A stretch of DNA of 64,000 bases from Fidelibacterota bacterium. GTDB taxonomy: Bacteria > Fidelibacterota > UBA8477. The position numbers and the translations under genes were made by a program. Where the stretch lies: NCBI GenBank assembly GCA_021734065.1, contig JAIPJQ010000001.1, forward strand, positions 19,251-83,250, written 5' to 3'. This document shows, piece by piece, positions 11,335-61,864 of the stretch; position 1 is the stretch's first letter, and every line of letters begins with the position of its first letter. A model generated the notes under the pieces. It did not search any database, was not told where the DNA came from, and was given only the letters and a program-made list of their open reading frames with translations.

Positions 11335-13281
11335 ATGAAGCCTAATGGTCGCCAGCCACAAGAGCCAGCCAATCCAACCACCAGAACAAAAGATCTGCGA
11401 GTTACGCGACGATTCCTGGGACCCGTTCAGGACCTGGAAGCACATGTTCGTCCCGATTGGTGGCGTACGATTTTTAATTCACTCTACCTGAAAACGGATG
11501 CTGATGTAGTAGAAGATCAGGCGATTACCTCCACGGAAATTGATCAGATCTTACAAATTCTACAACCCAACACAGATGCACGAATCCTTGATTTGGCTTG
11601 TGGTCAGGGGCGTCACGCGCTTGAGATGGCCAGGCGGGGATTTACAGGCATCGAGGGAATGGATCGCTCCCACTACCTTATCCAGCGGGCCAGGTCCATT
11701 GCGAAAAAAGAAAATCTTAGAATCAAATTTCGTGAAGGTGATGCCAGGAAAATTGTATGGCCGGCTGATACAATGGATTTGCTCCTCATTCTGGGAAACA
11801 GCTTTGGATATTTCGAAACAGCCCACGAGGATTTGAAGCTTTTGCAGGAAGTATTCCGGGTGCTAAAACCCTGGGGTAAAGTTTTGGTTGATGTGACCAA
11901 TGGACAATTTTTACGGGACAATTACCAACCCCGTTCCTGGGAATGGATTGACAAAAATTATTTTGTGTGTCGGGAGCGTTCGCTGTCGCGTGACAATGAT
12001 CGATTGATCTCACGAGAAGTAATCACGCATGTTGAACGCGGGGTCATTGAGGATCGTTTTTATGCCGAGCGCTTGTATACCGAGGAAAGTCTCACCGCGT
12101 TATTCAACGCTGCGGGATTCAGCGATATTGTTTTCCATGGCGAGATTATTCCAAATAGTCAACGAAATCAGGACCTTGGGATGATGGCATCACGCTACAT
12201 TGTGACGGCAGTCGTGCGGAAAGAATGGACGCCCATAAGCAAAAAGCCCCATCCCTCCACCCGCTCGATCATCACATTATTGGGCGATCCCCGTAAACCT
12301 GATATTATAAAACCGGAAGCCGTATTCGATGATGACGACATCTATACAGTGGATCAATTGAAAGCGGTGTTAAAACGTCTGCCGCAATATCATGTACAAT
12401 ACCTGCATAATCATGACGATCTGATTCAGGATCTATTACAGCGGAAAGGTAAAGTAGATCTGGTCTTCAATCTTTGCGACGAGGGCTTTGGAAATGATGC
12501 CCGGCATGAATTGCATATCCCGGCGTTGTTGGAAATGTTGAGTATCCCCTATTCCGGATCCGGTCCACAGTGTCTGGCCTATTGCTACGACAAATCATTG
12601 GTGCGAGGTATTGCACAAGAAATGGATATTGCGGTACCGGGCGCTTTCTTTATCAAACCGGAAGACACATCGTTTGAACTACCTTTTTCATTTCCGGTAT
12701 TGGTAAAACCCAATTTTGGTGATTCCAGTCTGGGTATTACGCAACACAGTTTTGCCAAAACACTTGAAGAATTGGTGAACGCAATTTCTACCATTCGAAA
12801 TCAAGTGGGTTATGACAAACCGGTTTTAGTTGAAAAATTCCTTCCGGGTAAAGATATCAGCCTGGGAATTATTGGCAATCCGCCCAATGCCTGCACGATT
12901 CTACCTATTATTGAAGAAGATTACAGTAAACTGCCAAAAGAGTTGCCCCGAATATGTGGATATGAGGCAAAATGGTTGCCGGAATCCCCCTACGGAAGCA
13001 TCACTTCAATTCCGGCTGAGATACCAGAATCAACCCGGAAACTTTTAGAGGAGAGTTCGCTGAAATTATTCGAACGCCTGGAGTGCCGCGATTATGCTCG
13101 TTTTGACTGGCGTTTGGATGAGCTGGGAGAGCCAAAATTACTGGAAGTTAATCCAAATCCGGGCTGGTGTTGGGATGGGCACCTGGCGAAGATGGCTGGT
13201 TTGGCGGGATTTACATACCAGGAGATGATTGCGTCGATTTTAGCGGCAGCGGAACAGCGATTGAATCTGAACCGAGGGTAG
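11335..13281 (+). CDS. fusion protein: class I SAM-dependent methyltransferase (N) + D-Ala-D-Ala-ligase-like ATP-grasp (C)
   Basis: Single 648-aa ORF. The N-half has SAM motif I (ILDLACGQGRHALEMARRG) and post-I/II motifs (EGDARKI, LLILGNSFGYF, VLKPWGKVLV). The C-half has DLVFNLCDEGFGNDARHELHIPALLEMLSIPYSGSG, CYDKSLVRGIA, VLVKPNFGDSSLGI, VLVEKFLPGKDISLG and LLEVNPNPGW, which fit a Ddl-type ATP-grasp layout. AAGAGGA lies 5 nt upstream of the ATG. Confidence 0.75.
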   Translation: MKPNGRQPQEPANPTTRTKDLRVTRRFLGPVQDLEAHVRPDWWRTIFNSLYLKTDADVVEDQAITSTEIDQILQILQPNTDARILDLACGQGRHALEMARRGFTGIEGMDRSHYLIQRARSIAKKENLRIKFREGDARKIVWPADTMDLLLILGNSFGYFETAHEDLKLLQEVFRVLKPWGKVLVDVTNGQFLRDNYQPRSWEWIDKNYFVCRERSLSRDNDRLISREVITHVERGVIEDRFYAERLYTEESLTALFNAAGFSDIVFHGEIIPNSQRNQDLGMMASRYIVTAVVRKEWTPISKKPHPSTRSIITLLGDPRKPDIIKPEAVFDDDDIYTVDQLKAVLKRLPQYHVQYLHNHDDLIQDLLQRKGKVDLVFNLCDEGFGNDARHELHIPALLEMLSIPYSGSGPQCLAYCYDKSLVRGIAQEMDIAVPGAFFIKPEDTSFELPFSFPVLVKPNFGDSSLGITQHSFAKTLEELVNAISTIRNQVGYDKPVLVEKFLPGKDISLGIIGNPPNACTILPIIEEDYSKLPKELPRICGYEAKWLPESPYGSITSIPAEIPESTRKLLEESSLKLFERLECRDYARFDWRLDELGEPKLLEVNPNPGWCWDGHLAKMAGLAGFTYQEMIASILAAAEQRLNLNRG

Positions 13282-14201: not shown

Positions 14202-16769
14202 ATGAAACAGGTGCATCGAAGGCCGGGCATTCACATTGTCCTGCTGCTATCCGTGGGCGTCACGCTGCTCTGTGCTCAGGTAAACTGGGAATCCATCGGT
14301 CCTGGTGGTGGGAGTGACCTCCACTTTTTGGCTGTGGATCCAACCAATGCTGACATCATCTATACGGCTGGTGATATTGAGGGCATTTTTAAGTCAACCG
14401 ACGGTGGTGCGTCCTGGGTTAGTATTAATGACAATTTAGCCCAATCTCATTACGGTGCTGATGCCTATTGGGTAAATGATATCGTGATAAATCCTGTGAA
14501 CCATGAGTCCGTTTACATTGCAACTTCTGTTGGGTTATTCCAGAGTTTGACGGCTGGCGGAAACTGGGAATTGTTGTACCCCACGGTAATAGAAGATGAG
14601 GAGGACCCCAGAGTAGTGGGTACGGTGGCTATTGACCCGGCGGATGATCAGGTTATCTACACGGGTTTGGGGAATTCCGCCGTGGGCTCGTGGGCTGATT
14701 TTGAGCCATTTTCGAATGATCTGGACTTTTCAGGTGTGTTCAAAAGTACCAACGGCGGTGTTTCCTGGACAGAGTGCCCAGTTGGTTTTCCATCCGGAAC
14801 AGCTGTTCACAGCATCGTTATCCACCCTAATTCGCCAAGTTATGTGATATTGGCCAGCACGAACGGCATATTCCGCAGCACAAATGCTGGTGATACCTGG
14901 ATGGCTGCTAATACAGATCTGCCTCACACCAATGCCTATCAGATGATTGGGGTTTTAGATGGCAGCACTTTCCATTTATACCTTTCACTGAAAACACTGG
15001 GGACAATCGGTGATTCCACCAGCTTCTCAGGCGGATTGTACCACAGTACGGATTTTGGAGAAAACTGGACAGATATTACGGGAAATTTACCGACCTACGA
15101 TTCCTATGAAGGTATTTTCTATGATTACTGGAAATTTGATGTGAACCCATTGGATCCCGCCATCATTTTAACGGGCCCCACCCGGGGAAGTGGTTTCGAA
15201 GCGCCCGGGATTTACAAAACAACGAATGGTGGTTCAACCTGGACGATGGTGCACACGGCCTTTACATCTGGCTGGCTGGATCCGGATTGGTTCTGGGAAC
15301 GCTACATTTATGGAATCAAATTCGCCCCAACCGATACAAGCAGGATTACCACTTGCCTGGATCAGGTTGACCAGAGCAATGATGGTGGCATGACTTGGTC
15401 CCAAAAATACACCTATGCCCAAAATAGCGCCTGGCATGGCGAGGGGCTGGAACTGATGAATACAGAGGTTGTGGCTTTTGACCCGGATGATCCTGACATC
15501 ATGTATGTAGGTTATGACGATATGGGACTGTTCCGTTCTGACGACGGTGGCTACTCTTATTATCGATTGGATTCTCATCAGGATCCAACAATCGGCAATC
15601 TTACGGATATAGATGCAGTGAAGGACATCCAGATTGATCCGGTGAACGGTGAGGCGTATATCAGCCGTTATCAAGGCTCTCAGGGTGGTTTGAACCAGGA
15701 TTTCTCAAGCGGTGGAATCGTTTTCAGTAACGACCATGGCAACACTCAGACTGATATTACCGGGTCGCTGCCGCGCGGTCGTAGTGATTTGGTTTTAGAT
15801 GGTCAATCCGGATCACCGGGAAACCGAACACTTTATACAGCGATTTACCACCACGGTGTTTACAAATCCACCAATAGTGGTGGCAGCTGGGACCCAATTA
15901 ACACCGGGCTGGGGACAAACACCGCCTATGCGTGGGAAATTGCTATTGATCCCAATGACTCTCAGACGCTCTACCTGGGTCTTAACAGCATGGGTGCGGA
16001 AATTCCAGGGTTGTACAAATCCAGTGATGGTGGTGCTGGTTGGAATTTGCTGACAACCTTCCCGGCAGGTGATGTACTCACGGTTTACATTGATGGTAAT
16101 AGCACCGTCTATGCGGCAATCAGTGATAATTTTGATTGGAATTATACCGGTGGACTCTATCGCTCGAATGATGATGGCGCTTCCTGGGAACTGATCTTGC
16201 CGCATTCCCGGGTTATTGATGTGCAACGGCATCCAACTGACGAGGATATTCTGCTGGTGGCTGGCCAACCGTGGTACCGGGCTGGCGGTGATGGAGGACG
16301 ACTCTATCTCAGTACAGATAATGGAACGACTTGGGATATTATCTCAGCAGGGATGGGGCATACATTTTTTAATTTTGCCCGATTTAATTCCCACAATCCT
16401 GATCAGATCCTGGCAGGCACCGCCGGGGGAGGCTTGTGGCGAGGGAGCCTTTTACCCACCAATACTGTCCCTTCGGAAACCGCTGTCCCCGCATCGATAA
16501 TTCTGGAGCAGAATTACCCCAACCCGTTTAACCCCACCACCACGATTTCGTACCACCTACCGGAGCCTGGTTTTGTAACATTAGCAATCTATCGTTTGGA
16601 TGGAACGCTTGTAAAATCTCTGATCGCTGGCTGGCAGGATAAAGGAAGTTTTTCCGCACGATGGAATGGCACCGATAACGCGGGGAAAAAAGTGAGTAGC
16701 GCTGTGTACCTTTACCGTCTGGAAACGCCAAATCACCAACTGGTTCGAAAGCTTATTCTTCTGAAATAG
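14202..16769 (+). CDS. secreted BNR/Asp-box repeat double-propeller protein (sortilin/GH74-like) with T9SS C-terminal sorting domain
   Basis: 855 aa with a signal peptide (IVLLLSVGVTLLCAQ). I count 11 Asp-boxes: STDGGASW, STNGGVSW, STNAGDTW, STDFGENW, TTNGGSTW, SNDGGMTW, SDDGGYSY, STNSGGSW, SSDGGAGW, SNDDGASW and STDNGTTW. The C-terminus LEQNYPNPFNPTTTISY...SAVYLYRLE is a type-A T9SS CTD. Confidence 0.8.
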   Translation: MKQVHRRPGIHIVLLLSVGVTLLCAQVNWESIGPGGGSDLHFLAVDPTNADIIYTAGDIEGIFKSTDGGASWVSINDNLAQSHYGADAYWVNDIVINPVNHESVYIATSVGLFQSLTAGGNWELLYPTVIEDEEDPRVVGTVAIDPADDQVIYTGLGNSAVGSWADFEPFSNDLDFSGVFKSTNGGVSWTECPVGFPSGTAVHSIVIHPNSPSYVILASTNGIFRSTNAGDTWMAANTDLPHTNAYQMIGVLDGSTFHLYLSLKTLGTIGDSTSFSGGLYHSTDFGENWTDITGNLPTYDSYEGIFYDYWKFDVNPLDPAIILTGPTRGSGFEAPGIYKTTNGGSTWTMVHTAFTSGWLDPDWFWERYIYGIKFAPTDTSRITTCLDQVDQSNDGGMTWSQKYTYAQNSAWHGEGLELMNTEVVAFDPDDPDIMYVGYDDMGLFRSDDGGYSYYRLDSHQDPTIGNLTDIDAVKDIQIDPVNGEAYISRYQGSQGGLNQDFSSGGIVFSNDHGNTQTDITGSLPRGRSDLVLDGQSGSPGNRTLYTAIYHHGVYKSTNSGGSWDPINTGLGTNTAYAWEIAIDPNDSQTLYLGLNSMGAEIPGLYKSSDGGAGWNLLTTFPAGDVLTVYIDGNSTVYAAISDNFDWNYTGGLYRSNDDGASWELILPHSRVIDVQRHPTDEDILLVAGQPWYRAGGDGGRLYLSTDNGTTWDIISAGMGHTFFNFARFNSHNPDQILAGTAGGGLWRGSLLPTNTVPSETAVPASIILEQNYPNPFNPTTTISYHLPEPGFVTLAIYRLDGTLVKSLIAGWQDKGSFSARWNGTDNAGKKVSSAVYLYRLETPNHQLVRKLILLK
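16503..16766 (+). other. T9SS type-A C-terminal sorting domain (domain of 14202-16769)
   Basis: The last ~88 aa read ILEQNYPNPFNPTTTISYHLPEPGFVTLAIYRLDGTLVKSL...VSSAVYLYRLETPNHQLVRKLILLK. Confidence 0.75.
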
Positions 16770-20680: not shown

Positions 20681-21898
20681 TTAGTCGTATCGAATAAGCG
20701 TGAGATTGACAACGGATTCAAAACCGTTCGCACCCTGTTGAATGGTCAGGTCATTTAAAATGAAATTTATGGGCAATTGACTCCAATGCTCCAAAATCGC
20801 ACGCATGACCCAGTGATTACCCGTAACCATAATTTGCACCGGGTTTGCATCTATTCCCCCATCGAGTTCGGTGATGATGTGGCTGATGTAATGATGGAAC
20901 GGGCCAACCAGTTTTTCCAGGATGAAATGGATATCACCGGTTTCGGGTTCATAGGCACGCGGCACCTCAATAATATATTGAAACCTACCACTGATCGTGA
21001 ATCGGTCGGGTTGATCGGATTCGTGCAAAGGTCCATCTGTAACCGGACGAATGGTTGAGAGAACCGATTCGCGCACGCCCTGTTTACCATTGTCAGTTTC
21101 CAACTCGAGACGATTACGGTCAAGATAAAGATGCGAGCGGCCACCGGATTGATTCAAAATGCCCACCAGATTGGCAGCCAGCTGAAACATGGTCTGGTTC
21201 GTGACGACCAGGGAATCCAGATTTGTGTAATGTCTCATGGGCGGTGTTGAATCAATTTCTGCCGTTACGGTGTCCGTGTCATTCAATATTGTTGTTACCG
21301 TATCCTCCTGGGATTCAATTTTTTCTTCCACTATGTCCTGATCTTCCGGATCGCTTACCCCGGGGCGGGTCTCTCCGCTGTCCGGTACTGCCGCTGCCTG
21401 TGATGATGTAAGGGTATCTTCATCGGTGGTGCTGATGTAGGAAGGCGCTGGTAAAAATTGTTCAAAAATATCCTGCGGAAGAACCGAATCCGCTAAGACA
21501 GTATAAAGGCTGTCCTCTATGCGCAGGATTTCCAGTGAATCCAACAGGAAGGGGAAATCAGTTCGCTCACCCGTAGTATCGGCAGTGTCTGCCACCGCTG
21601 GGACGGGCTTGAATTCAGCAATTATTGGATCCAGCGTGCCCTGTTTATACAAAAACCCCAGCACAATGATAATCGCCAGAGCACCCAGAACCACAAAAAG
21701 TCCTTTTACGGATTCTTTGGGTTGATCAACAACCGGTGGGATTGGTGGAGGTTCTGGTTTTCTGGTATTGGACTTTGCTGCTTTAGAATCGTGATCGGCG
21801 CGTTCAATCTGCGTATCGGTCCGGAGATTGGGAGCCACGCGCTCCTGGAATTCCTGTGGATCCAGTAATCCCTTATCCTTAAGAAGATCAATCTTCAC
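20681..21898 (-). CDS. hypothetical bitopic membrane protein, PilN-like N-terminus (function uncertain)
   Basis: 405 aa. The GTG start overlaps the upstream stop by 11 nt. The extreme N-terminus KIDLLKDK resembles the PilN INLLP peptide. A Pro-rich stretch (KPEPPPIPPVVDQP), one TM helix (LFVVLGALAIIIVLGFLY), an acidic low-complexity linker and a ~190-aa C-terminal domain follow. Confidence 0.55.
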   Translation of the reverse strand: MKIDLLKDKGLLDPQEFQERVAPNLRTDTQIERADHDSKAAKSNTRKPEPPPIPPVVDQPKESVKGLFVVLGALAIIIVLGFLYKQGTLDPIIAEFKPVPAVADTADTTGERTDFPFLLDSLEILRIEDSLYTVLADSVLPQDIFEQFLPAPSYISTTDEDTLTSSQAAAVPDSGETRPGVSDPEDQDIVEEKIESQEDTVTTILNDTDTVTAEIDSTPPMRHYTNLDSLVVTNQTMFQLAANLVGILNQSGGRSHLYLDRNRLELETDNGKQGVRESVLSTIRPVTDGPLHESDQPDRFTISGRFQYIIEVPRAYEPETGDIHFILEKLVGPFHHYISHIITELDGGIDANPVQIMVTGNHWVMRAILEHWSQLPINFILNDLTIQQGANGFESVVNLTLIRYD

Positions 21899-22858: not shown

Positions 22859-25066
22859 TTAGTCGTTTGACCAGCTTAATTCGCCATCAATGATGCGCCC
22901 GGCCGTGGTATCAACCTGTGTGAAAAAGAGGTTCCGTCTGGTTTCCACCGATTGACCTTCCAGGGGCGATTCAATTCTCAAGTTCACCTGATTGCGAATA
23001 GTTACGCGAAATGGAAGCCCGGTTACCGGACAGTGTTTCATATCCGCGACCAGTCTATACGGGTATTTCTTTTCAATTTTTGTGAATTTCTTTGCCACCA
23101 TAGTATCCAGCCAGGTGGCGAATGAATCTTTCGCCATAATGATGGATTTTTCCTGAATGCCTACAATAAATCGTGGTGACACAGACGTATACAGTGATGC
23201 TGTGGTATCTTCAAGAGCTGTAAACTGGTAAAGCCCCATGAGCACACTGTCCACCGTGAAGTGCACCACATAGGAATTCTCTCCCAGGTGCGCACGCTCG
23301 GTGCGGGTCGCTTCACCGATTTCCGCCACAAAATACTCCCGGACAGAATCAGCCATGCCAGCCTGGTAACGCAGTTCTCCCGTCGGACCAGAAGCGATAA
23401 AGGGAATCTCGACCGGGTCAGTAACCTCTGCCAAAGGCATTGTACCACGAGAATAAATACCGATGAATGAACTATCGGAAAATTCGATGACAGTATCCTT
23501 TGTGTTAACAAAAATTGAGTCATATAAGGTCGTATAATCGGGTTTTACTGATACATCCACGGTGACGGTATCGGGATAAATCACATGTTCTCCCATAAAG
23601 TCTGTAGTATCACTGGCGGCCATCTGTGTCGTAGTTTGCACAATATAATTCGTATGGGTATTTACATTGCTGAATTTACCGGTCAGCGCTTCGTACAATT
23701 CCATATTCATGTCATCATACATCCGTAAGACCCGACGAGGGACATTCACATTATACTGATCCTGTGGTATGGCGTAGACCTGCCAATCTACCTGATCATT
23801 ACGTTTCCGCACCGTATCAGCCACGAGTTCCACCAAATGAATTGAAGCTTCGTCTTCATCCACCCCAATAAGCCGCGGGGCTAACTGGACATAAATATCC
23901 TTGTTGATCTTGATCTGGTTCAGCGCGATACTGGGACCAATATTTACCGTGAAAACAATGTCACTCAAATCCAGCGTGACCTTCTTGCTTCCCATGAATA
24001 TCGGGTTACTGTTGAGCGAATCGGAAACAATGCTCAGCAACCTCCGGGCAATTTCTTTATGCGGTTCTTTATACCCACCAGAAATGTCTTTATAGAGCGT
24101 GTTTAGTCGCTCATCCAGCCCTTTTTGCATGTTTTCAATGTCAACGGTTGCTGAAAGCGTTATCTCCTGCCCGGTCGAATCCGTTACCGGAATATCCAAC
24201 CCGACGGGAATTTCACTTAAAGCGAGTACGCGTTCCACAGCCTCATCATAGATTGATTCACCATAGGTCAGCGAGTCTTCAGAATCGAATTTCACATGCT
24301 TGCGTAATTTGATTTTGGTTTTTTCCAGCAAATCCGGGAGGGTCGGTGCAACCGTGTACTCGAAGGTGATGGCCTCATAGAGATTTGGGAAACTTACCTC
24401 TCCCCGCAAACCCTCATTAGCCAGGACCGTATCCATGACCGCCTCCACCAACGGATTCGCGAAGGATTTGTCCTTGGTGGCAGATCCGGTTAACACATTG
24501 AACATACGGAACTTACCATTTTGATACAGGATATCGAACCGTTCAGGAACATGGAATCGCAAACTGTCTTCGCCGATCTGCATGGTTTGTTCACCCACGA
24601 AGTTGCCCTCTTCAAATCGTGCCCGGACAAGTTCAATAAATTCGGCAACACGCTCCGCCGGTAGATAATGGCTGGGATTCAGCGCTTCATACAATTCACG
24701 ATGCAATTCGGTATAGCGTCCTTCATACTCAGGTGTGTAATGGATTACTACCGAATCCTGGGGAAAGACAAACCGCTTTTCTCCGACAAAACTTTGACCA
24801 GAATCAGCTTGCGCGCTTCGAACGCTGTCATAGACGCCATTCACGACGTTGAAAAGGACATCCAGATCGGGTGTGTATGATTCGGATAAAACATAAAAAG
24901 CCTTTTCAGCCGTGTTTATCGCAACCATGCGTTCTCGCGCAATATCCCGCAAATCGGCTTCTTCATTCCAGATTTTTGTGGGTAACCAAATCACTGCGAT
25001 GAGCATGAGAACCAGCAGAACGATAACAATCGTGTTAATCGTATGGACGGTATTCTTGTCAGCCAC
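22859..25066 (-). CDS. hypothetical signal-anchored 735-aa envelope protein
   Basis: GTG start preceded by GGGAGG. There is a single N-terminal hydrophobic helix (TINTIVIVLLVLMLIAVIWL) and then a long soluble region with no motif I recognise. Confidence 0.65.
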   Translation of the reverse strand: MADKNTVHTINTIVIVLLVLMLIAVIWLPTKIWNEEADLRDIARERMVAINTAEKAFYVLSESYTPDLDVLFNVVNGVYDSVRSAQADSGQSFVGEKRFVFPQDSVVIHYTPEYEGRYTELHRELYEALNPSHYLPAERVAEFIELVRARFEEGNFVGEQTMQIGEDSLRFHVPERFDILYQNGKFRMFNVLTGSATKDKSFANPLVEAVMDTVLANEGLRGEVSFPNLYEAITFEYTVAPTLPDLLEKTKIKLRKHVKFDSEDSLTYGESIYDEAVERVLALSEIPVGLDIPVTDSTGQEITLSATVDIENMQKGLDERLNTLYKDISGGYKEPHKEIARRLLSIVSDSLNSNPIFMGSKKVTLDLSDIVFTVNIGPSIALNQIKINKDIYVQLAPRLIGVDEDEASIHLVELVADTVRKRNDQVDWQVYAIPQDQYNVNVPRRVLRMYDDMNMELYEALTGKFSNVNTHTNYIVQTTTQMAASDTTDFMGEHVIYPDTVTVDVSVKPDYTTLYDSIFVNTKDTVIEFSDSSFIGIYSRGTMPLAEVTDPVEIPFIASGPTGELRYQAGMADSVREYFVAEIGEATRTERAHLGENSYVVHFTVDSVLMGLYQFTALEDTTASLYTSVSPRFIVGIQEKSIIMAKDSFATWLDTMVAKKFTKIEKKYPYRLVADMKHCPVTGLPFRVTIRNQVNLRIESPLEGQSVETRRNLFFTQVDTTAGRIIDGELSWSND

Positions 25067-32365: not shown

Positions 32366-33142
32366 TTAATCGGACGCCTCTGCCCGTCTCTCCTGCAGCT
32401 CTTCGTAGGCGCGGGTGAGTTGTTTTCGACTGGACTTTTCCAAGTCCTCCGGATTCACCTGGCGCATGATCTGCTCAGCCTCATCCAGCTCGTTTTTACC
32501 AACCAGGGCTTCCGCTTTTGCCACCAGCGCTGCTTCGCGGTAGGTTGTGTCATAATACAAATCTAAAATTTCATTGAAATAGAGTAACGCTGAATCCCAC
32601 TCCCGCAGCTTCAGGTAAAGTATCCCGGATCCATACAGCTTATGCGCCAGTTTCTCCCGAATCTCCACAATATGTTCAGTCGCCCGGGGCACATGTTCAC
32701 TTTGCGGGAACAGGTCAATGAAGTTTTGCATCTCTTTCAGCGCTCGTTTTGTAAGGGTCTGATCTAACCGGTAGTCGGGTGATAACAGGTAGTAACTTTC
32801 CGCCTTTCGCCAACTGGCTTGTTCAACGAAGGGCGAGTTAGGCATACGGTTGATCAATCGATTGTATTCATCGATGGCAATAAGGTACTCTTCCCGGAAA
32901 TAATGAGTTTCTGCAAGCTGGAACTGAGCATCATCAGCGTACACACCCACCGGATCGTTGTACACGATGAAGGTGAAGGTCTCCTCCGCTCTCAGCCAGT
33001 TTTTCTTCTCCATGAGTTCCAGACCTTTTTCGTATTCCTGCTCAATGTTATTCACATCAAACTGGGGCTTGGATCCTGCGCAACCCTGGAAAATCCACAG
33101 GGTAAGCAGGCTCAGAACAGTCAGCTTTATCCATTTTACCAT
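32366..33142 (-). CDS. bamD: outer membrane protein assembly factor BamD (TPR lipoprotein)
   Basis: Lipobox LWIFQGC followed by YfiO/BamD-type TPR helices (YEKGLELMEKKNWLRAEETF, AQFQLAETHYFREEYLIAIDEY). The ATG at 33142 is preceded by AGAGAGGGA. The track ORF starts 7 codons earlier. Confidence 0.8.
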   Translation of the reverse strand: MVKWIKLTVLSLLTLWIFQGCAGSKPQFDVNNIEQEYEKGLELMEKKNWLRAEETFTFIVYNDPVGVYADDAQFQLAETHYFREEYLIAIDEYNRLINRMPNSPFVEQASWRKAESYYLLSPDYRLDQTLTKRALKEMQNFIDLFPQSEHVPRATEHIVEIREKLAHKLYGSGILYLKLREWDSALLYFNEILDLYYDTTYREAALVAKAEALVGKNELDEAEQIMRQVNPEDLEKSSRKQLTRAYEELQERRAEASD

Positions 33143-33173
33143 AAAGTTTAATCCCTCTCTCATCGCGTCTGGT

Positions 33174-33920
33174 TCAGAATGTCACCACAACCTGGAGACC
33201 GCGTCGGTTAATGTGGGTATCGGGTAGAAGTGTGGCTTGCCAATTTTTACTTGCATAGGTGGTAATATCGGTACCGATAGCCGCTTCGAAAGCGCTAATC
33301 AGATGGTTGAACATGAGTATCGTCACGGTATGCTTGGCTTTTTTACCATAATCATTGGCGGCTCGGCGCATGAGCGAATACTCGTATTTATGAGGTGTTA
33401 ATAATTCACCATGGGCGGTAGAATCAATGTTGTCTTTGTCGTAATCATCCCAGCCGCAGATGAATTCGTTGTACTTCCCGACGTTCTCGTAATAATGCCT
33501 GTCCTTTACCGGATATTTAATGCCGTCGATGGTCTCATAATCCATGGCGTGCGTCTGGATAAATCCACAGTGATGCACCTGCCCGTTAATAATCGTTTCC
33601 TCTGAAAGCCACAGGTCAAAATCCCAGTATATATCCACAAAATTCTGATAGTCGGTAATCGCCTGTCGCTCCTGTTTTAGATAGAAATAATGCCCCGAAA
33701 TCATACCGGCTTCTACCAGCGCGAAGGCCGCGGCGCGTTTATAATGCCCTTCACTCAACTGTCCCCAGCCCGGAAGAACGAGAGATTTAACAAAATTCGC
33801 CTGCATCTCACGCGGTAGCGGCTGGGGCTCACCATCCAGGCTTCCGACAAACTGAGCCATACCCAGAGAAACGCTTGTCAATAGCACCAAAATTCTTGCA
33901 ATCAGTGAATGTCGTATCAT
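33174..33920 (-). CDS. hypothetical secreted/outer-membrane protein with DUF5683-like N-terminal motif
   Basis: 248 aa with a signal peptide. The motif SLVLPGWGQLSEGHYKRAAAFALVEAG resembles the PG(L/W)GQ motif of DUF5683. The C-terminus ends ...LQVVVTF (aromatic terminal residue). Its start overlaps the upstream stop (TAATG). Confidence 0.5.
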   Translation of the reverse strand: MIRHSLIARILVLLTSVSLGMAQFVGSLDGEPQPLPREMQANFVKSLVLPGWGQLSEGHYKRAAAFALVEAGMISGHYFYLKQERQAITDYQNFVDIYWDFDLWLSEETIINGQVHHCGFIQTHAMDYETIDGIKYPVKDRHYYENVGKYNEFICGWDDYDKDNIDSTAHGELLTPHKYEYSLMRRAANDYGKKAKHTVTILMFNHLISAFEAAIGTDITTYASKNWQATLLPDTHINRRGLQVVVTF

Positions 33921-36900
33921 TACTCAAACCCAAACAAAATTCGCCAGTAATAGCGCATTTCCCGGCCATACTGGTAGGTCGTTTCTGTCGTTTGTACCGA
34001 GAGTGGATCCAGCCCATAGTAACCGGAAAATTCGATTGCAGTGGGATACCCATAGAAGGAGAATCCACTCAATCGTAATTCCAGTCCCACATCCTTACGC
34101 CAGCGCGAATTGCCCAGGTCATTCTGGATCAGGCTGGAAATTTCTCGCGGTGAATCCAATCTGGCGCCAGCGTCGCCTGTCCAGGCGCTGCCAATCTGTC
34201 CCACAATACCCAGATAAATATCCTGTAGCGCAAATTGTGCCACAGGCAGGTACAGATCTCGCATCAGGGGGAATCTCAGCGTTCCGGTAAACACCGCTTT
34301 CCGGGTTCCGCTCAATCCATAGAACGGATATCCCCGTAAACCCGGCAGACCGCCCCCGAAGTCATAGAAAAAATCATCCAAATGATTATGCGGGATAATT
34401 GTCATGTCGGTATTTAATGACAAAACGGTTTTTGAATTCTGCCCCAGACGCTTGCCGTAAAAATACTTCATATCCAGCCGCTGGTAGTGGTAGAGATTAT
34501 AGATTTCACCCCAACTGCCCGTGTCCTCATTGTACCCGAACTGGTCCATGAAATTATGGTAATTGTCACGCAACGAAATATCAAATTGAACACCGGAAGG
34601 ATTAATGCTGCTTTCCTGCCGTACGGCTAACCCGGCGAACCGATAGTGCAATCCCCAATCAACCCCCTTAAAATAGTCATAGGATAAGCCGCCTACAGCG
34701 AGATTCCCATCATCACCAGGCAAAGGAATCAAATGGTCATCAATGTAAGTATTGTAAGTCCCCGCAGTGATATCTGCGTCCAAATAATGGGTATCCGGTA
34801 ATCGTACCGCGGCTTTCAGCGTCGCCGCTGTCAGTCTAAATTTGATATCAGACTCTGCAGTATACACGTTGTTGTAGTAAATTAATTCTTCCCGCGTATT
34901 GCGGGTCATGTGATAGACTTCCAGCGACAGTGTTGGTAAAAAACCATGGTATTCCGCCAACAAAAACAGATCTGAATCGCCATTCAGACCAATGTCACCA
35001 CCGCCCATTAGAAGATAGTTATCCAAAATTTCATTGGAAAAGAAATAGAGTCCGGGTTTTACAACCGTCTTGTTTTTAGACTTGTCAATGTCCACCTGGA
35101 CCCGCGGCAAAATGAACATGGGACCATACCGCAATTCATACGGGACATGGGATAATGGTTTTTCATGCCGAGTCCAATCCTTCGCAGGCAGATCACGCCG
35201 GAAAAAAACCGGCATGGAAGGTGCGCCGTAACCAGTCCGGGCAATGGATTCGTCGTAAAAATCGCTTTGGTCTAATTTTGCGATATTAAAACCCAGACTG
35301 TCGTACAATGAATAAACCAGCTTTTCACCGTGTAATTCCGGCTGAAAAGCCCCGCCCACCACATGGGTCAGTGCTGCTTCCCTGCCCGTCTTCAGGTCAC
35401 GCTCATAAATATTAAACACACCTGAACGGTCATGAGCATAGATCAGTGTCGTTTCATTTAATGGATAGGGGTCTCTCTCATCCCATTCGTTCTCCAGCAG
35501 CGGTTCCCAGGAATTCGCATCCAGATCAAAAATACCAATGTCCCGATTATACGTGGTCACATAGTCGAACACGATGCGCGTATTGTCCACCCATCGGGGG
35601 GTAAAAACCTGTGTTCCCGGCAGCATGCGGGTGAGTGTAATAGATGAATCCGGGTGGTCAGGAAACGTCATTTTCAGATTATTGGTACCATCATGCAATC
35701 CGACATAAACAATTTTGCTGCCATCCGGTGACCAGGCCGGATTCTTGGCACGCTCGCCAAAGGTGAGTTGCTTCTCGCTGCTATCCGGATGGATGGAACG
35801 AACGAATAGATCATTGAAGCGTGACCCTGTCAAGGCAAAGCTGCACCGGTCACAATTCTGCTGATGCTTCAGACTTGCCGGGTGCTGATGTGCGGGGAAT
35901 CCGGGTGATGATGAGTTGCGCATGGCCGGCGGAACCACCAGTCCTCCGTCCCAGAAATTTTTTCGGCTGATTACCACGCGCTCACCATCCGGGGCCCAGT
36001 CAAATCCTTCCGCTCCCGGCACCAGCAACAGCGGCTCATCACCATCCCGCTTCAGGTAGAATCCCGTAAGCGACATGTAACTCTGACCGGCATTACTGAT
36101 AAAACCCAGAATGCTATCACCTGGTGCCAAACGGGGATGACTATTGGTGGCGCCGTCACGCTGAATAATATGCACCGGTGTGCGCTGTGGATCGGTGATG
36201 AGCGCTGCATAGGTCTTCTGTAACGAATCTTGCCAGGTAGTATGAAGTTGACGCTTAGATAAGCCGGTTTCGGCAGCAACCGCCTGGTAAAAGGAATAAT
36301 TCACCGGGGAACTCAGTCTCCGGGTAATCCGGTCCAGGATATCTTCACCCCAGTGTTTCGATAAAAAGTGAACCAGATTGAAGCCCTGATTATACACCGC
36401 CTCATTTTTCACACCCTCCTTGCCAAAGCTGTTGATTTCCGTGAAGGAGGGGATTTCATCATGGTAAATCCGGTCCCGGATTATCATATCGCGAATACTA
36501 TCCCACCAATCGTAGCGTGTGGCATTGGATTGGTACTGGGCGACGCCTTCTGCCCACCACATGGGGACCACCACGCCCGGCAACGGATAGGACATGATTC
36601 CATTGGGGTAACCATAGAGAACATCATCGCGGCGTTCCGGCTCGTATTGGATGACCTGGAAATAAGCCGCCGGGACATTCCGGCCAAACTTGCGGGCAGC
36701 CCGCAGGGAGATGATGTGCGTAAATTCGTGGGTCAGGACATCCCGGAGCCAGTAATGCGAACCGCGCAGGGAATAATCCAGCGGCATTGCCCAAATCTCA
36801 ATCTTGTTGTCATAGTAATAAGCGCCGCCATTGGCGTAATCATCCGTATCGCGAATGATGAGCTGGGTTTTTTCAGAAGGCTCGTAGTTATAGACCGCGG

Positions 36901-37123
36901 TAATGGCCGGATAAATATCTTCAGCAATAAGGAGTGCTTCATTCGCCGTCCATTCCGTCCCGTCATGATAGTGAAGGATAAAATGTTCGCTTTCAATGGT
37001 GTGCCAATTCAATTCGGGGTGGTTATAGCCAAACTGTCCCAGAATCATGATCGGTGTTAGAATGACCAGCAGCAGGACTTGAAACAGGTGCAGATGGGGA
37101 AATGGGTGGAATCGGGAATTCAT
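33920..37123 (-). CDS. chimeric outer-membrane protein: MA-clan metallopeptidase-like domain + TolB-like (PD40) propeller + Omp85-family beta-barrel
   Basis: 1067 aa. HEFTH lies at aa 132-136 (nt 36716-36730), with a downstream WWAEGVAQY gluzincin-type Glu. PD40-like repeats include NPAWSPDGSKIVYV and FDWAPDGERVVIS. The C-terminal ~390 aa has alternating beta-strand character. It carries the Omp85 loop-6-like motif FGGGLPGLRGYPFYGLSGTRKAVFTGTLRFPL (LRGY at nt 34328-34339). Confidence 0.7.
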   Translation of the reverse strand: MNSRFHPFPHLHLFQVLLLVILTPIMILGQFGYNHPELNWHTIESEHFILHYHDGTEWTANEALLIAEDIYPAITAVYNYEPSEKTQLIIRDTDDYANGGAYYYDNKIEIWAMPLDYSLRGSHYWLRDVLTHEFTHIISLRAARKFGRNVPAAYFQVIQYEPERRDDVLYGYPNGIMSYPLPGVVVPMWWAEGVAQYQSNATRYDWWDSIRDMIIRDRIYHDEIPSFTEINSFGKEGVKNEAVYNQGFNLVHFLSKHWGEDILDRITRRLSSPVNYSFYQAVAAETGLSKRQLHTTWQDSLQKTYAALITDPQRTPVHIIQRDGATNSHPRLAPGDSILGFISNAGQSYMSLTGFYLKRDGDEPLLLVPGAEGFDWAPDGERVVISRKNFWDGGLVVPPAMRNSSSPGFPAHQHPASLKHQQNCDRCSFALTGSRFNDLFVRSIHPDSSEKQLTFGERAKNPAWSPDGSKIVYVGLHDGTNNLKMTFPDHPDSSITLTRMLPGTQVFTPRWVDNTRIVFDYVTTYNRDIGIFDLDANSWEPLLENEWDERDPYPLNETTLIYAHDRSGVFNIYERDLKTGREAALTHVVGGAFQPELHGEKLVYSLYDSLGFNIAKLDQSDFYDESIARTGYGAPSMPVFFRRDLPAKDWTRHEKPLSHVPYELRYGPMFILPRVQVDIDKSKNKTVVKPGLYFFSNEILDNYLLMGGGDIGLNGDSDLFLLAEYHGFLPTLSLEVYHMTRNTREELIYYNNVYTAESDIKFRLTAATLKAAVRLPDTHYLDADITAGTYNTYIDDHLIPLPGDDGNLAVGGLSYDYFKGVDWGLHYRFAGLAVRQESSINPSGVQFDISLRDNYHNFMDQFGYNEDTGSWGEIYNLYHYQRLDMKYFYGKRLGQNSKTVLSLNTDMTIIPHNHLDDFFYDFGGGLPGLRGYPFYGLSGTRKAVFTGTLRFPLMRDLYLPVAQFALQDIYLGIVGQIGSAWTGDAGARLDSPREISSLIQNDLGNSRWRKDVGLELRLSGFSFYGYPTAIEFSGYYGLDPLSVQTTETTYQYGREMRYYWRILFGFE

Positions 37124-46175: not shown

Positions 46176-47420
46176 TCATCTGCGCTTAGCATTTGTAAAC
46201 CAGAGTTCACTGGTTTGAATACTAATTTTAAAATTCACTAAATTTTCTTCCGGATACCCGGATAATCCCCCGCGCTTACCCACGCCAAGCGAAAAGTCAA
46301 GGCGTGACCGATTCTGCGGTAATGGGACCCCCAATCCCCCTGTCAAATATGTTTCGCGAATATACGTGTTCGGGGAAGGTGAGGCGTAGAATATTTTGTG
46401 ATAAAACCCCATGCGCCAATCGGTCCGTTCAAAAAATGTACCTACGAGATCGCTATGCCTGATCAACAGACCTGAATTAAATGACGAAGAGGAGTTCACA
46501 TTATCGTCCCAGGATTCGGGGATCTTGAATAGATGACTATTTTGAAACGCCTCTTCACTGAAAAAACGCTGGCTTAAATCAATCAAAAAGTACACACGCT
46601 CTGAGTATTTGTATTCCACGCCCATGGCCAGTCGTGCCGGCCAATCCGGCATTGATTCAGAATAGGACACTGTATTGGGTGAACCGGTCAGCGTTACCTC
46701 ACCCTTAAAAGAGGGTTCTATTACCGGAAGGTTAACGGTGACGCCATAAAGCATGTTGGAGAACAGGTGGGCTTGCACGCCAAGCTCCAGCAAGTTCCCC
46801 CGGATATTACCGGAGAGTTTAGAACTGCTGTTAGTGGAAAGGTCCGGATAATACTGAACCGCTTCCTCTGCATAATAGCCTGTGAGACGGTGCCATTTCA
46901 GGCCCAAACTAATCTTTTCGTTAATTTTAACGCCGGCACCCACAAACATACTCCATACACCACCGGAATTTGTTACGGTCAAAACCGGTGCAGTGAAACT
47001 GGTATCCGTGACATCTTTAAACTGCCCGGCCATATCTGTAACGGGTTCCGTCCCCACTGACGCGTAAATTCGCTGACCGATGGGAAAACCCAACTGTAAG
47101 CGTGTCATGCGTTGATATTGAGAGGCAATTGAGGAACCGGTAGGTTGATACAGGGCATCACCAGATAACAGGTGCAGCCCCACTGTACCACCGGTCAGAA
47201 TTTTAACCGTTCTCAGATCATGCCAACTGGCCGGATTATTAGGGAGGAAATTAACGGAATCATAGTGTGCCGTGGTAGCGTACCCGAGTCCGGCTTCTAT
47301 GGCGGATCCGTTTTCCCGAAAATTTCCATATCCAATGGCCTGCAAAAGCGGTTGCGCAGTGAGTGCGCCCTGCAAAACAAGTAGAGCTGCCAGGTTCAGA
47401 ATGAATTTCGAAATACTCAT
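46176..47420 (-). CDS. FadL/PorV/PorQ-superfamily outer-membrane beta-barrel, hypothetical
   Basis: 414 aa with signal peptide LNLAALLVLQGALTAQ. The N-terminal motif SAIEAGLGYATTAHYDSVNFLPNNPASW parallels the hatch motif of the 40042-41415 protein and of FadL. Alternating beta-strand pattern throughout. Confidence 0.55.
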   Translation of the reverse strand: MSISKFILNLAALLVLQGALTAQPLLQAIGYGNFRENGSAIEAGLGYATTAHYDSVNFLPNNPASWHDLRTVKILTGGTVGLHLLSGDALYQPTGSSIASQYQRMTRLQLGFPIGQRIYASVGTEPVTDMAGQFKDVTDTSFTAPVLTVTNSGGVWSMFVGAGVKINEKISLGLKWHRLTGYYAEEAVQYYPDLSTNSSSKLSGNIRGNLLELGVQAHLFSNMLYGVTVNLPVIEPSFKGEVTLTGSPNTVSYSESMPDWPARLAMGVEYKYSERVYFLIDLSQRFFSEEAFQNSHLFKIPESWDDNVNSSSSFNSGLLIRHSDLVGTFFERTDWRMGFYHKIFYASPSPNTYIRETYLTGGLGVPLPQNRSRLDFSLGVGKRGGLSGYPEENLVNFKISIQTSELWFTNAKRR

Positions 47421-48592
47421 GGTTTACCCACCCGCGCTGAGGTCACGACGACGTTCAAGACAGATTGTCCGGCCGGATTTTTGGGGAACGCCAATAGTCC
47501 CGGATCCAACCCTGCATTAAGGGGTCGAATGAAGAAGCTGGTAGTGCTGTCGGGCTCTGCCACCGCTTCCTGCATGATACTGGTTACTGTATAGTTGGTT
47601 TGGCCACTATCCACAGATTTGAAATTGAAACTTACGGCATTGCAATTACAGGTATCTGCATCCAACTGCCGCAGTGTAAGCGCAACGGCCGGGATGGAAT
47701 CAACTTTGGACTGCAAGTATACCTTCGATGCGGTTGAATCCACAGTGAGCGTTGCCAAGGCACGGATGACATGTTGAAGTTGTTCTCCTGCAGGAAACGT
47801 GAGGCTGTCCGAATTCAAGCGGACTTGAAGTTTTTGAGCGCCCAACACCGACACATATTCAAATTGGGTGGTATCCAGTCCCGGATCGGCAGGATTCCAG
47901 GAAACCACCGACGCATCGTAGAGAATATTCCGTGAAATGACGGTGTCCAGGGTTGGATATTTGAAATAGACTTTAGGTGGGAAGGCGGTTTCCGCAGAAT
48001 AAAAGCGCTGAATAATATCGGTAACAGTCGGCAGATTCATGGCAAACTCCATGGTTTTCAAAGTGTCATACTGGAGAGTGCTCAACACAGAATCCCGATC
48101 CAGATCGATCTGGAGGGTGGTATCATTGCCACCAAAACTCATCTGTATTGTCCTGATAGGAGAACCCCAAGCACCTGATTCTGCGTCTGGTGTCATACCC
48201 GAAGCGTCGTACAGATTCACATCTACCGGACCAGGCACGGTCTGATCATCGGGATCGGCGCGATATAGCAGGTCTCGCTCAAACCGGACATACACGGAAT
48301 CAAAGGTGACGCTGTCCACCAGAGCGCTGTCTAAAAGTATTTTAAAATGAATGCCGGTGTTATACCCGGGAAGTTTGCCCATTACAAGCCGGCTCACGTT
48401 TGACCAATTCACTGAATCCTGAAAGGCACTGATACTTACTACCTGCGAGAGCGTGTCCGTCCGCTGTACAAATGGGTTATCCACCACCGAAATGTTATTC
48501 AGCGACTGCGGATCTTCGCAACCCATGAACGCAACGATTGCCAATCCAATGATACTCAATTCCATTTTTCGCCTAAATCGCATGCACGTCAT
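47417..48592 (-). CDS. hypothetical lipoprotein (DUF4270-like by context)
   Basis: 391 aa with lipobox AFMGC. It is Ser/Thr/Asp-rich with beta-rich predicted character. It lies downstream of a truncated glycogen-synthase-like gene, as DUF4270 does in Bacteroidetes (from memory). Confidence 0.45.
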   Translation of the reverse strand: MTCMRFRRKMELSIIGLAIVAFMGCEDPQSLNNISVVDNPFVQRTDTLSQVVSISAFQDSVNWSNVSRLVMGKLPGYNTGIHFKILLDSALVDSVTFDSVYVRFERDLLYRADPDDQTVPGPVDVNLYDASGMTPDAESGAWGSPIRTIQMSFGGNDTTLQIDLDRDSVLSTLQYDTLKTMEFAMNLPTVTDIIQRFYSAETAFPPKVYFKYPTLDTVISRNILYDASVVSWNPADPGLDTTQFEYVSVLGAQKLQVRLNSDSLTFPAGEQLQHVIRALATLTVDSTASKVYLQSKVDSIPAVALTLRQLDADTCNCNAVSFNFKSVDSGQTNYTVTSIMQEAVAEPDSTTSFFIRPLNAGLDPGLLAFPKNPAGQSVLNVVVTSARVGKP

Positions 48593-49543: not shown

Positions 49544-50740
49544 TTATAATTTAGACAACATTTCCCGTGCTTTTTGGGTGTAATCACTATTGGGGAAAAG
49601 ATTCAGGAATTTCTGAAATTCAGCCCGGGCTTGTGAAACATTGCCCATATTGAGATAGCACAATCCAATCTTGAATTGAGCGGCATCGGCTTTGTTGGAA
49701 TTGGGGAAATCGAACACTTTCTGGAATTCTACCAGTGATCGCTGATAATTGTCCTCACCATAATAACACTCCCCGATCCAGTACTGGGCATTATCGGCCA
49801 AATCGTGATTACGATTGGTGTTGATGAGCGAATTGAACATGCGAATAGCGTCATTATAATTACCATTTTGGTAATTACTCAGCGCATCAATGTACTGTTT
49901 TTTATACTCTTCCTCGCTCATTCGGGGGCGTTGATGGGAACTCTGCGTGTAATCAGACTGGTAATCAGAGGAGGGCATGGAAGTCTGAGGAGTTGCCTGC
50001 ACCTGCTGCGCCGGCGTCATATTCATGATTTCGTTAAAGGAGTTTGTCAGAGAGAGAATTTTGTTCTCCAGAAGAACCAACTGGCTCAGAATATCGTATG
50101 TAGAACTATCCTGGGCCCGAACATGCTGCTGGATGGTTTTCATGTCCTTTTCAAAAGCCATGAGTTCGTCATACACCTGAACCTGAAATTCAGCAAAACC
50201 GTCCATCAGACTATCCACAGGTGAATCTGTATCAACGATCTGAGATTCCAGACTGTCAAGGCGGTTCGTCAGAGCATGGATCGACTCTCCCTGCGCAGTC
50301 AGTTCACTATCCAAAGCTGCAAATTCTTCGGCGATGGAATCATCCATCAATTGCGCCAGGCTGTCCAGTTGCGCTTTTAACCGTTCTGTATCCGCACCTT
50401 CTCCCAATTCGGCTTTCAGCGATTCCACTTTGGTATTCAGGTCATCTTTCAGAGAGAGCAGGGTCGCCTTGGTCTCAGCCTGCAGCTTGTACAGATCCTC
50501 CATGGTCTTATGGTCTTCATCATAAGTTTCGCGTAATGCTTTCATCTCTTTTTCATATTCAACCATATTGGCCTGCAAATCGGCAGCCTGTTTGTTAGCA
50601 GTGGCTGCGGCTTCCCTGGCACGGATTAAATCCGCTTTTATTTTGACCAATTCTTCACTTGTATCGGGAGCACTGCTACCACACCCATATAAGCCGAAGA
50701 ACAGTGCCATTAATCCAATGAGTAACAGGTTGCGATTCAT
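49544..50740 (-). CDS. CpoB/YbgF-like lipoprotein with extended coiled coil and C-terminal TPR domain
   Basis: The ATG at 50740 has a GGAGGA RBS. Lipobox FGLYGC, ~250 aa of heptad-rich sequence, then the YbgF-type TPR end YIDALSNYQNGNYNDAIRMF...AQYWIGECYY...AQFKIGLCYLNMGN...FPNSDY. Confidence 0.7.
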   Translation of the reverse strand: MNRNLLLIGLMALFFGLYGCGSSAPDTSEELVKIKADLIRAREAAATANKQAADLQANMVEYEKEMKALRETYDEDHKTMEDLYKLQAETKATLLSLKDDLNTKVESLKAELGEGADTERLKAQLDSLAQLMDDSIAEEFAALDSELTAQGESIHALTNRLDSLESQIVDTDSPVDSLMDGFAEFQVQVYDELMAFEKDMKTIQQHVRAQDSSTYDILSQLVLLENKILSLTNSFNEIMNMTPAQQVQATPQTSMPSSDYQSDYTQSSHQRPRMSEEEYKKQYIDALSNYQNGNYNDAIRMFNSLINTNRNHDLADNAQYWIGECYYGEDNYQRSLVEFQKVFDFPNSNKADAAQFKIGLCYLNMGNVSQARAEFQKFLNLFPNSDYTQKAREMLSKL

Positions 50741-50901
50741 GAAAATCTTCCTCCAGAGAAACGGATTAGGCGGGCCATACACATTCGACGCAAAATTTAA
50801 CGGGTTAAGCGGGGTATCCAAAAACATTTTCCTTTAGTTGATATTTTAAAATTAACAATTTAGACTGCCCCAATACTATAAATTCATGCCACTATCGATC
50901 A

Positions 50902-61829: not shown

Positions 61830-61864
61830 GCCCCGTTTGTACACTGATTTAACAGACAATGATT

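Follow-up and report, generated by a model that had tools for sequence, protein, structure and literature searches.

What does an outer-membrane barrel of the Omp85 superfamily do when a metallopeptidase-like domain and a beta-propeller stand in place of its POTRA domains? The question is raised by a gene for a protein of 1067 amino acids (aa) in a 64,000-nucleotide stretch of DNA from a Fidelibacterota bacterium (GenBank assembly GCA_021734065.1, contig JAIPJQ010000001.1, positions 19,251 to 83,250 of the forward strand). This whole stretch is called the window, and all positions below are counted in it. Omp85 proteins are universal outer-membrane-building machines, and nearly all knowledge of them comes from POTRA-bearing members. 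The protein was found to be a member of the 'WD40-like Omp85' subfamily, whose three-part architecture has already been catalogued and is not new, and its gene is linked to core type IX secretion system (T9SS) genes in an order conserved across phyla. This T9SS cassette context is what is new here, and no publication was found for it. Our favoured explanation, to which we give a probability of about 0.55, is that the protein is a zinc peptidase, gated by its propeller, that is anchored in the outer membrane, faces the periplasm, and acts as an accessory of type IX secretion in an exact role that we infer.

Domain architecture of the 1067-aa protein

A preliminary description of the window, made from the sequence alone, had read positions 33920-37123 as one open reading frame (ORF) for a single 1067-aa protein, and re-reading gave an exact match. 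The full-length protein was modelled with AlphaFold2 from a 45-sequence homologue alignment that reached down to 34% identity. The mean predicted local distance difference test score (pLDDT) was 84 and the predicted template-modelling score (pTM) was 0.82, the latter suggesting a fixed arrangement of the three domains. In the model, a signal helix is followed by an alpha/beta domain (aa 35-310), a propeller (318-618), a coil of 50 residues, and the strands of a barrel (670-1063). The features of the gene, all on the reverse strand, are as follows.

33920..37123, reverse strand: WD40-like Omp85 gene (peptidase, propeller and barrel), 1067 aa, single ORF with an ATG start
37034..37123, reverse strand: region of the signal peptide, aa 1-30, with LFQVLLLVILTPIMILG as its hydrophobic core, read from the sequence
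36194..37021, reverse strand: gluzincin-like metallopeptidase domain, aa 35-310, from a Peptidase_MA_2 match and AlphaFold2 secondary structure
36716..36730, reverse strand: predicted zinc-binding/catalytic motif HEFTH, aa 132-136, from sequence and conservation
36533..36559, reverse strand: WWAEGVAQY, in which E192 is a putative third ligand of zinc, aa 189-197, from sequence and conservation
35270..36172, reverse strand: six-bladed TolB-like beta-propeller, aa 318-618, from PD40 and TolB profiles, Foldseek and AlphaFold2
35825..35950, reverse strand: clade-specific insertion, disordered, in blade 2 of the propeller, aa 392-433, containing C-x-R-C, pLDDT below 50
35117..35269, reverse strand: linker, aa 619-669, mostly coil by DSSP and of low pLDDT
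33923..35116, reverse strand: Omp85-type 16-strand outer-membrane beta-barrel, aa 670-1067, from AlphaFold2 and Foldseek
34328..34342, reverse strand: GLRGY, a loop-6-type (V/I/L)RG(F/Y) motif, aa 928-932, from sequence and AlphaFold2 position

The order of a peptidase-type domain, a TolB-like propeller and an Omp85-type barrel had been proposed in the preliminary description, and it was borne out by the profile searches and by AlphaFold2 with Foldseek. At the N-terminus, the signal peptide was modelled as a low-confidence helix (aa 9-27), and alignments of homologues to the protein started only at about residue 11-30; its cleavage site is a putative one.

We examined the N-terminal domain for its active-site residues. 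HEFTH and WWAEGVAQY were both found at the residues given earlier (aa 132-136 and 189-197), with E192 lying 56 residues after H136. Given the amino-acid composition of the protein, chance alone would yield about 0.06 HExxH motifs. Residues H132, E133, F134, H136, W189, A191, E192, G193, and Q196 were invariant in all 45 homologues (at least 34% identity), and the same active-site residues remained at least 90% conserved once 57 more diverse homologues were examined. The motif by itself would be weak evidence, and the HEFTH...E192 pair is called real because it is invariant in 45 of 45 sequences. The profile Peptidase_MA_2 matched aa 182-302 of the protein with 26.4 bits, against a Pfam cutoff of 32.4, and it matched 39 of the 45 homologues at E<=0.1 (best E 6.8e-11); the region aligned to no non-peptidase family, in keeping with its proposed assignment to clan MA. 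In addition, Peptidase_M9 (collagenase) was weakly matched by 6/45 homologues, and the NCBIfam model of flagellinolysin, an HExxH protein, gave weak matches (E 0.0012 for the protein and 7e-8 for the homologue of a Balneolaceae-type contig, L086).

In the AlphaFold2 model, the domain consists of a beta-sheet subdomain and helices, with HEFTH on helix 125-142 and E192 on helix 188-196. The H136-E192 spacing (about 55-56 residues) is longer than in M1 peptidases or thermolysin because a beta-hairpin at aa 152-182 intervenes. These results indicate that the N-terminal domain, as modelled, has the HExxH-helix and downstream Glu-helix arrangement of clan MA(E) gluzincins, and zinc-peptidase activity would be expected from the conserved residues.

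The middle of the protein was assigned to a TolB-like propeller by several searches. PD40 matched aa 452-474 with an E value of 1.4e-6, above the Pfam cutoff, and was matched in 43/45 homologues, and the NCBIfam TolB propeller profile weakly matched aa 461-621. In a profile search of the PDB with the 45 homologues, TolB was found at 1.3e-16. With the full-length model, Foldseek returned TolB as the best match (2.6e-10), with S9 and tricorn structures among the 50 matches listed. About 24 strands in six groups were modelled at aa 318-618. The insertion in blade 2, of about 40 residues, ends in a conserved C-x-(R/K)-C pair and is present only in the 15 closest of the 45 homologues (46-90% identity). 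When PDB chains were searched with the whole protein and with the 45-homologue profile, only TolB and other propellers were found, with no BamA and no peptidase.

Since the Foldseek search with the full model listed propellers only, aa 619-1067 were modelled alone, giving a pLDDT of 90.8. The preliminary description had named beforehand, as an outcome that would speak against an Omp85-type barrel, a C-terminal region that does not model as one. A 16-strand barrel was modelled, with sixteen long strands at aa 670-1063, and all 50 of the 50 best PDB matches of the barrel-only model belonged to the Omp85 superfamily (BamA, Sam50, CdiB, and TamA; best E 5.6e-8, probability 1.00, template-modelling scores of 0.45-0.58). 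The BamA structures among them were those of E. coli, Salmonella, Deinococcus, and Flavobacterium johnsoniae. The motif GLRGY (FGGGLPGLRGYPFY, about aa 922-935) lies in the loop at 910-940 between strands 11 (900-909) and 12 (941-954), which is the position of BamA loop 6. G928, G931, and Y932 are invariant in the 45 homologues, with L/I/M at residue 929 and R/K/Q at residue 930; BamA of F. johnsoniae carries LRGY in L6 (PMC12611786). The C-terminus ends in ...LFGF(E), a terminal aromatic beta-signal. We therefore conclude that the barrel, as modelled, has the Omp85-superfamily fold.

The same barrel is remote from known Omp85 sequences. Pfam Omp85 (PF01103) gave no match to the protein at E<=1 and was matched by one of the 45 full-length homologues (E 6.9e-10). 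When the barrel by itself was used as a phmmer query on 1.84 billion representatives, 193 proteins were matched, and in every full-length match the barrel lay at the C-terminus of a protein of ~1000 aa with the same architecture; no bridge to canonical Omp85 proteins and no other domain combination were found among the 193. The absence of POTRA domains, noted by eye in the preliminary description, held up as well. No Pfam POTRA match was obtained in the protein or the 45 homologues, and the only segment with room for such a domain, aa 619-669, was modelled as coil (pLDDT 57-63) with only a short helix at 625-628 by DSSP; its sequence and length vary among homologues. Absence of POTRA is accepted for the noNterm, Metallo, and WD40-like Omp85 subfamilies (PMC4104836).

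The protein belongs to a large family. More than 1000 full-length homologues, of 980-1185 aa, were obtained with the protein as query and more than 3000 matches with a distant member, and a relative is present in at least 593 GTDB species genomes. The nearest relatives are found in Marinimicrobia-type metagenome-assembled genomes (MAGs), at 46-53% identity in GTDB species and 90% in one further assembly, and the family extends to a homologue in a Calditrichaeota MAG (P0111) with 34% identity over the full length. Database names of the homologues are 'hypothetical', 'PD40 domain-containing', 'TolB-like translocation protein', or 'Tol biopolymer transport system component', and never Omp85, and NCBIfam has no model for the family. 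The family thus includes abundant ocean bacteria (Marinimicrobia), and public labels such as 'TolB-like' mislabel its members.

The architecture had been called unusual for an Omp85 protein. It does depart from the canonical one, but it is not new, having been classified in 2014, when Heinz and Lithgow (Front Microbiol 5:370; PMC4104836) divided the Omp85/TpsB superfamily and described a 'WD40-like' Omp85 subfamily, in which a TolB-like propeller replaces POTRA. Phyre matches to the BamA barrel, TolB, and 'aminopeptidase' are given in their Table S3 for proteins of Caldithrix, Rhodothermus, Cloacimonas, Sorangium, and further genera, the listed members including H1XQ58, D0MEQ5, and B0VIY2; function, HExxH conservation, and a link to type IX secretion are all absent from the paper. 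Two papers of 2024 describe the subfamily as uncharacterised (PMC11116518 and PMC11358297), the latter in the words 'divergent WD40 and peptidase domains'. No publication tying the subfamily to the T9SS was found in a literature search.

Conserved linkage to porV and other genes

We next considered the neighbouring genes. On the same strand of the window, the gene order is porV, an M6-like gene, the WD40-like Omp85 gene, a DUF5683-like gene, and bamD.

40042..41415, reverse strand: porV, 457 aa, first gene of the cassette, Pfam PorV with E 8.2e-21
37140..40016, reverse strand: T9SS-secreted M6-like inactivated metalloprotease homologue, 958 aa, with a type A sorting domain, from NF052323 and Por_Secre_tail
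33174..33920, reverse strand: DUF5683-like protein, 248 aa, from a weak DUF5683 match
32366..33163, reverse strand: bamD, 265 aa, TIGR03302 BamD with 135 bits against a cutoff of 81.4

To see how far this order is kept, 85 distinct loci, dominated by Marinimicrobia, were compared, with the neighbours located by tblastn. PorV was encoded upstream of the homologue in all 59 loci with at least 4.6 kb of upstream DNA. The M6-like gene stood immediately upstream in 76 of 78 informative loci, and a DUF5683-like gene was found downstream in 80 of 80. Downstream bamD was found in 67/77 loci, which were of the Marinimicrobia type only; bamD was absent after the cassette in loci of the Bacteroidetes-MAG, Calditrichota, KSB1, Ignavibacteriales, and Balneolaceae types. 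The core gene order was kept in Calditrichaeota, KSB1, Ignavibacteriales, Bacteroidetes MAGs, and a Balneolaceae-type contig. It persisted at only 24-36% identity in a Bacteroidetes MAG, Calditrichota, and the Balneolaceae-type contig, the barrel of the last being 24% identical. In the Bacteroidetes MAG (L004) and the Balneolaceae-type contig (L086), porU, encoding a C25 peptidase, precedes porV. One contig had a rearranged order, with porV still ~2.3 kb away. In Cytophaga hutchinsonii, the genes downstream of porV are small, so there is no cassette next to porV. These results show a conserved genomic linkage of the WD40-like Omp85 gene to core T9SS genes across phyla.

The M6-like protein of the window matched NF052323, a family curated by NCBI as T9SS-dependent, with 356 bits (cutoff 600) and Por_Secre_tail at aa 873-953. 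Its counterparts in the Bacteroidetes-MAG locus L004 (837 bits) and the Balneolaceae-type locus L086 (1272 bits) scored above the NF052323 cutoff. HExxH was absent from all 5 M6-like partners checked, in agreement with the label 'inactivated'. At the downstream end of the WD40-like Omp85 gene, one base belongs both to its TAA stop and to the ATG with which the DUF5683-like gene starts (TAATG, 33918-33922). Overlaps or 3-nt gaps also join the M6-like, WD40-like Omp85, and DUF5683-like genes in L001 and L086, and such overlaps and gaps of a few bases suggest translational coupling. The DUF5683-like proteins (250-355 aa in the homologous loci L001-L087) make up a separate, well-conserved family and have a signal peptide, a terminal aromatic residue, and the conserved blocks S-x-x-x-PG-x-GQ, FAD-x-HW, YENIGKY-x-F-x-x-GW-x-D, and MFNH-x-ISA. 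No NCBIfam model was found for them, and a literature search gave nothing relevant.

The fixed partnership with PorV and a T9SS-secreted pseudo-protease provides the first concrete, testable functional context for the subfamily. It also points to T9SS accessory parts that Porphyromonas gingivalis, F. johnsoniae, and C. hutchinsonii would not reveal.

Several side observations were made on the cassette. The gap of 477 nt upstream of porV holds, on the reverse strand, a sigma-70-like site (TTGACA-17-TATATT, 11/12; 41572-41600) and a 12-bp hairpin with a T tail (41433-41460), and a 54-aa Trm112p-like gene lies at the position of this gap in related loci. In a promoter and terminator scan, the site counts equalled the shuffled expectation, so no operon boundary was drawn. 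The Marinimicrobia-type cassette also appeared in MAGs labelled Lentisphaeria, Winogradskyella, and Deferribacteres (L015, L016, L018, L042, and L070), probably through an error of label or binning; these MAGs share the BamD-NadD tail where the contig reaches far enough.

Elsewhere in the window, a 609-aa ORF (60120-61949, reverse strand) matched the PorZ N-terminal propeller PF21544 with 28.2 bits (cutoff 27), Reg_prop marginally, and NCBIfam PorZ with an E value of 4.5e-4. It adjoins a gene for a GWxTD-domain protein (58849-60180, reverse strand) and may be T9SS-related. An 855-aa protein (14202-16769, forward strand) with Sortilin-Vps10/F510_1955 glycosylhydrolase-like repeats carries a type A sorting domain at aa 772-852 and is likely T9SS cargo. 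Besides the bona fide bamD, a second YfiO/BamD-like tetratricopeptide repeat protein of 427 aa is encoded at 49544-50827 (reverse strand), with its YfiO match at aa 308-426. Four reverse-strand ORFs had no Pfam match at E<=1e-5: 22859-25066 (735 aa), 20681-21898 (405 aa), 46176-47420 (414 aa), and 47417-48592 (391 aa). A 648-aa ORF (11335-13281, forward strand) joins an N-terminal S-adenosylmethionine-methyltransferase to a C-terminal ATP-grasp domain of the D-Ala-D-Ala-ligase type.

A proposed periplasmic peptidase for type IX secretion and the alternatives

Under the favoured explanation, the protein would be exported by Sec, and its BamA-type 16-strand barrel would then be inserted in the outer membrane. 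A rigid periplasmic module would take the place of POTRA, with a gluzincin-type zinc metallopeptidase packed against the six-bladed propeller. Held by the barrel, the enzyme would lie beneath the outer membrane, with PorV and the surface-exposed M6-like protein as its neighbours. By analogy with tricorn and prolyl-oligopeptidase-type enzymes, the propeller may limit access to unfolded or peptide substrates, and the peptidase would trim or degrade T9SS-related polypeptides, for example stalled cargo or sorting-domain fragments. Physical association of the protein with PorV, the M6-like protein, and the DUF5683-like protein, like the identity of its substrates, is something we infer. The polypeptide of an Omp85 protein runs into strand 1 from the periplasmic side, and the N-terminal module should thus be periplasmic. 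This placement is made likely by analogy with PlpD, an Omp85 protein whose N-terminal domain is experimentally periplasmic (PMC11116518).

Several points weigh against this explanation. That the propeller gates the active site, and on which side of the membrane the module lies, are both assumed by analogy, the protein is below the Pfam thresholds for Omp85 and Peptidase_MA_2, and the whole family is known from sequences and predicted models. The sample of loci is dominated by Marinimicrobia, so the count of 59/59 for PorV does not represent 59 independent events. Cleavage of sorting domains by PorU takes place at the cell surface rather than in the periplasm, and the action of a periplasmic peptidase on such domains agrees poorly with this. 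Finally, proteobacteria and myxobacteria are not known to have a T9SS. Since WD40-like Omp85 proteins from both are listed in PMC4104836, the subfamily as a whole is not T9SS-specific.

A wider version of the favoured explanation can be offered only tentatively. The protein is present in many phyla of the Fibrobacteres-Chlorobi-Bacteroidetes (FCB) group and would have been lost from the model Bacteroidia; an Omp85 barrel that began as an insertase would now serve as the membrane core of a trans-outer-membrane proteolytic device, processing or disposing of T9SS cargo or sorting domains and recycling PorV.

Close to the quality-control insertase suggested in the preliminary description is the possibility that the protein is an outer-membrane-protein insertase, a BamA paralogue dedicated to T9SS components such as PorV and the DUF5683-like protein. 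The propeller would then be a BamB-like scaffold, and the peptidase would remove failed substrates. The Omp85 fold, the conserved loop-6 motif, and the short first and last strands, as in BamA, are in line with this, as are the analogy to a BamA-BamB fusion suggested by Heinz and Lithgow and the function of Sam50 without POTRA that they cite (PMC4104836). The presence of bamD after the cassette in 67/77 loci points the same way, but this adjacency is confined to Marinimicrobia-type loci and is missing in Calditrichota, KSB1, Ignavibacteriales, Balneolaceae, and the Bacteroidetes MAG. Furthermore, the protein has no POTRA for substrate reception or BamD binding, its barrel is so diverged that the phmmer search against 1.84 billion representatives returned only its own family, and an invariant peptidase active site is not needed for insertion. 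We consider a dedicated insertase unlikely.

Somewhat less probable still is a general envelope housekeeping enzyme, for peptide scavenging or a Tol-Pal-like task, whose adjacency to porV would be inherited gene order without a functional link. The propeller does match TolB best, and homologues are annotated 'Tol biopolymer transport system component' or 'TolB-like'. However, the protein's score with the TolB equivalog model is 33.5, where the cutoff is 343, and the TolA-binding N-domain is missing. WD40-like Omp85 proteins from non-FCB bacteria in the tables of Heinz and Lithgow would also suit such an enzyme, as would the position of the Marinimicrobia cassette among the SHMT, NrdR, BamD, and NadD genes. 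By contrast, these flanking housekeeping genes vary by phylum while the PorV/M6-like/WD40-like Omp85/DUF5683-like core stays together, the cassette genes overlap or nearly abut, and the direct upstream partner bears a T9SS sorting domain.

T9SS sorting domains are cleaved outside the cell, and a type-V-like passenger might be pictured, in which the peptidase-propeller module is moved to the surface through or around its own barrel and acts with the M6-like protein and PorV on secreted cargo, such as cleaved sorting domains; we know of no precedent for this arrangement. The poorly ordered, variable linker of 50 residues ahead of the barrel and the surface action of the linked partners (PorV at the extracellular face and the M6-like protein with its C-terminal sorting domain) would allow it, but it is very improbable, given that among Omp85 proteins only PlpD was formerly believed to export an N-terminal enzyme domain, and PlpD keeps that domain periplasmic (PMC11116518), that a 16-strand lumen is too narrow for a folded module of ~590 residues, and that the pTM of 0.82 points to a fixed assembly and not a tethered passenger.

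Comparison with known systems

Four known identities were tried for the protein and rejected. TolB proper was rejected on its TIGR02800 score (33.5 bits against a cutoff of 343), with only propeller positions 195-356 matched and the TolA-binding N-domain lacking, and BamA proper, which has five POTRA domains and a TIGR03303-type equivalog model, because the protein has no NCBIfam or Pfam BamA or POTRA match. T9SS cargo was rejected because no Por_Secre_tail or TIGR04183 sorting domain was matched and the C-terminus is the barrel. A subunit of the Bacteroidota BAM complex (BamF/G/H/M/P) was rejected because the describing paper mentions no propeller or peptidase subunit.

By published descriptions, the protein is closest to the WD40-like Omp85 subfamily (PMC4104836), with which it shares a BamA-type barrel, a TolB-like propeller, an aminopeptidase-like N-terminal region, and the lack of POTRA. 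In common with BamA, TamA, and Sam50, it has a 16-strand barrel, ends in a C-terminal aromatic signal, and carries the (V/I/L)RG(F/Y) motif in loop 6, which joins strands 11 and 12. Unlike these, it has no POTRA and no PF01103 match, and its periplasmic part would be an enzyme with a propeller. The strand-13 motif of BamA carries Asp, and the corresponding position in the family is Gln, Glu, or Asp. TolB shares the six-bladed PD40 propeller but is soluble, whereas the protein would be membrane-anchored.

Among enzymes, tricorn protease and prolyl oligopeptidase/DPP-IV also join a propeller to a peptidase, and homologues of the protein carry Tricorn_N/Tricorn_2nd and DPPIV_N marks. However, those enzymes are soluble serine peptidases, whereas the protein is a predicted membrane-anchored HExxH metallopeptidase. 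Within the T9SS, the attachment complex PorU-PorV-PorZ-PorQ offers a parallel in gene content, since the gene has porV (and porU) in its cluster, along with the gene of a propeller-containing protein that bears a C-terminal sorting domain. The pairing of the outer-membrane barrel with such a surface protein recalls PorQ-PorZ, although neither PorQ nor PorZ has a sequence relationship to the protein, which itself has no sorting domain. The best functional analogy is to PlpD and the patatin-like Omp85 proteins (type Vd), in which a barrel is likewise fused to an N-terminal hydrolase, periplasmic in PlpD (PMC11116518). PlpD has POTRA and a lipase, whereas the protein described here has a putative metallopeptidase and a propeller and no POTRA; both would be barrel-anchored periplasmic enzymes.

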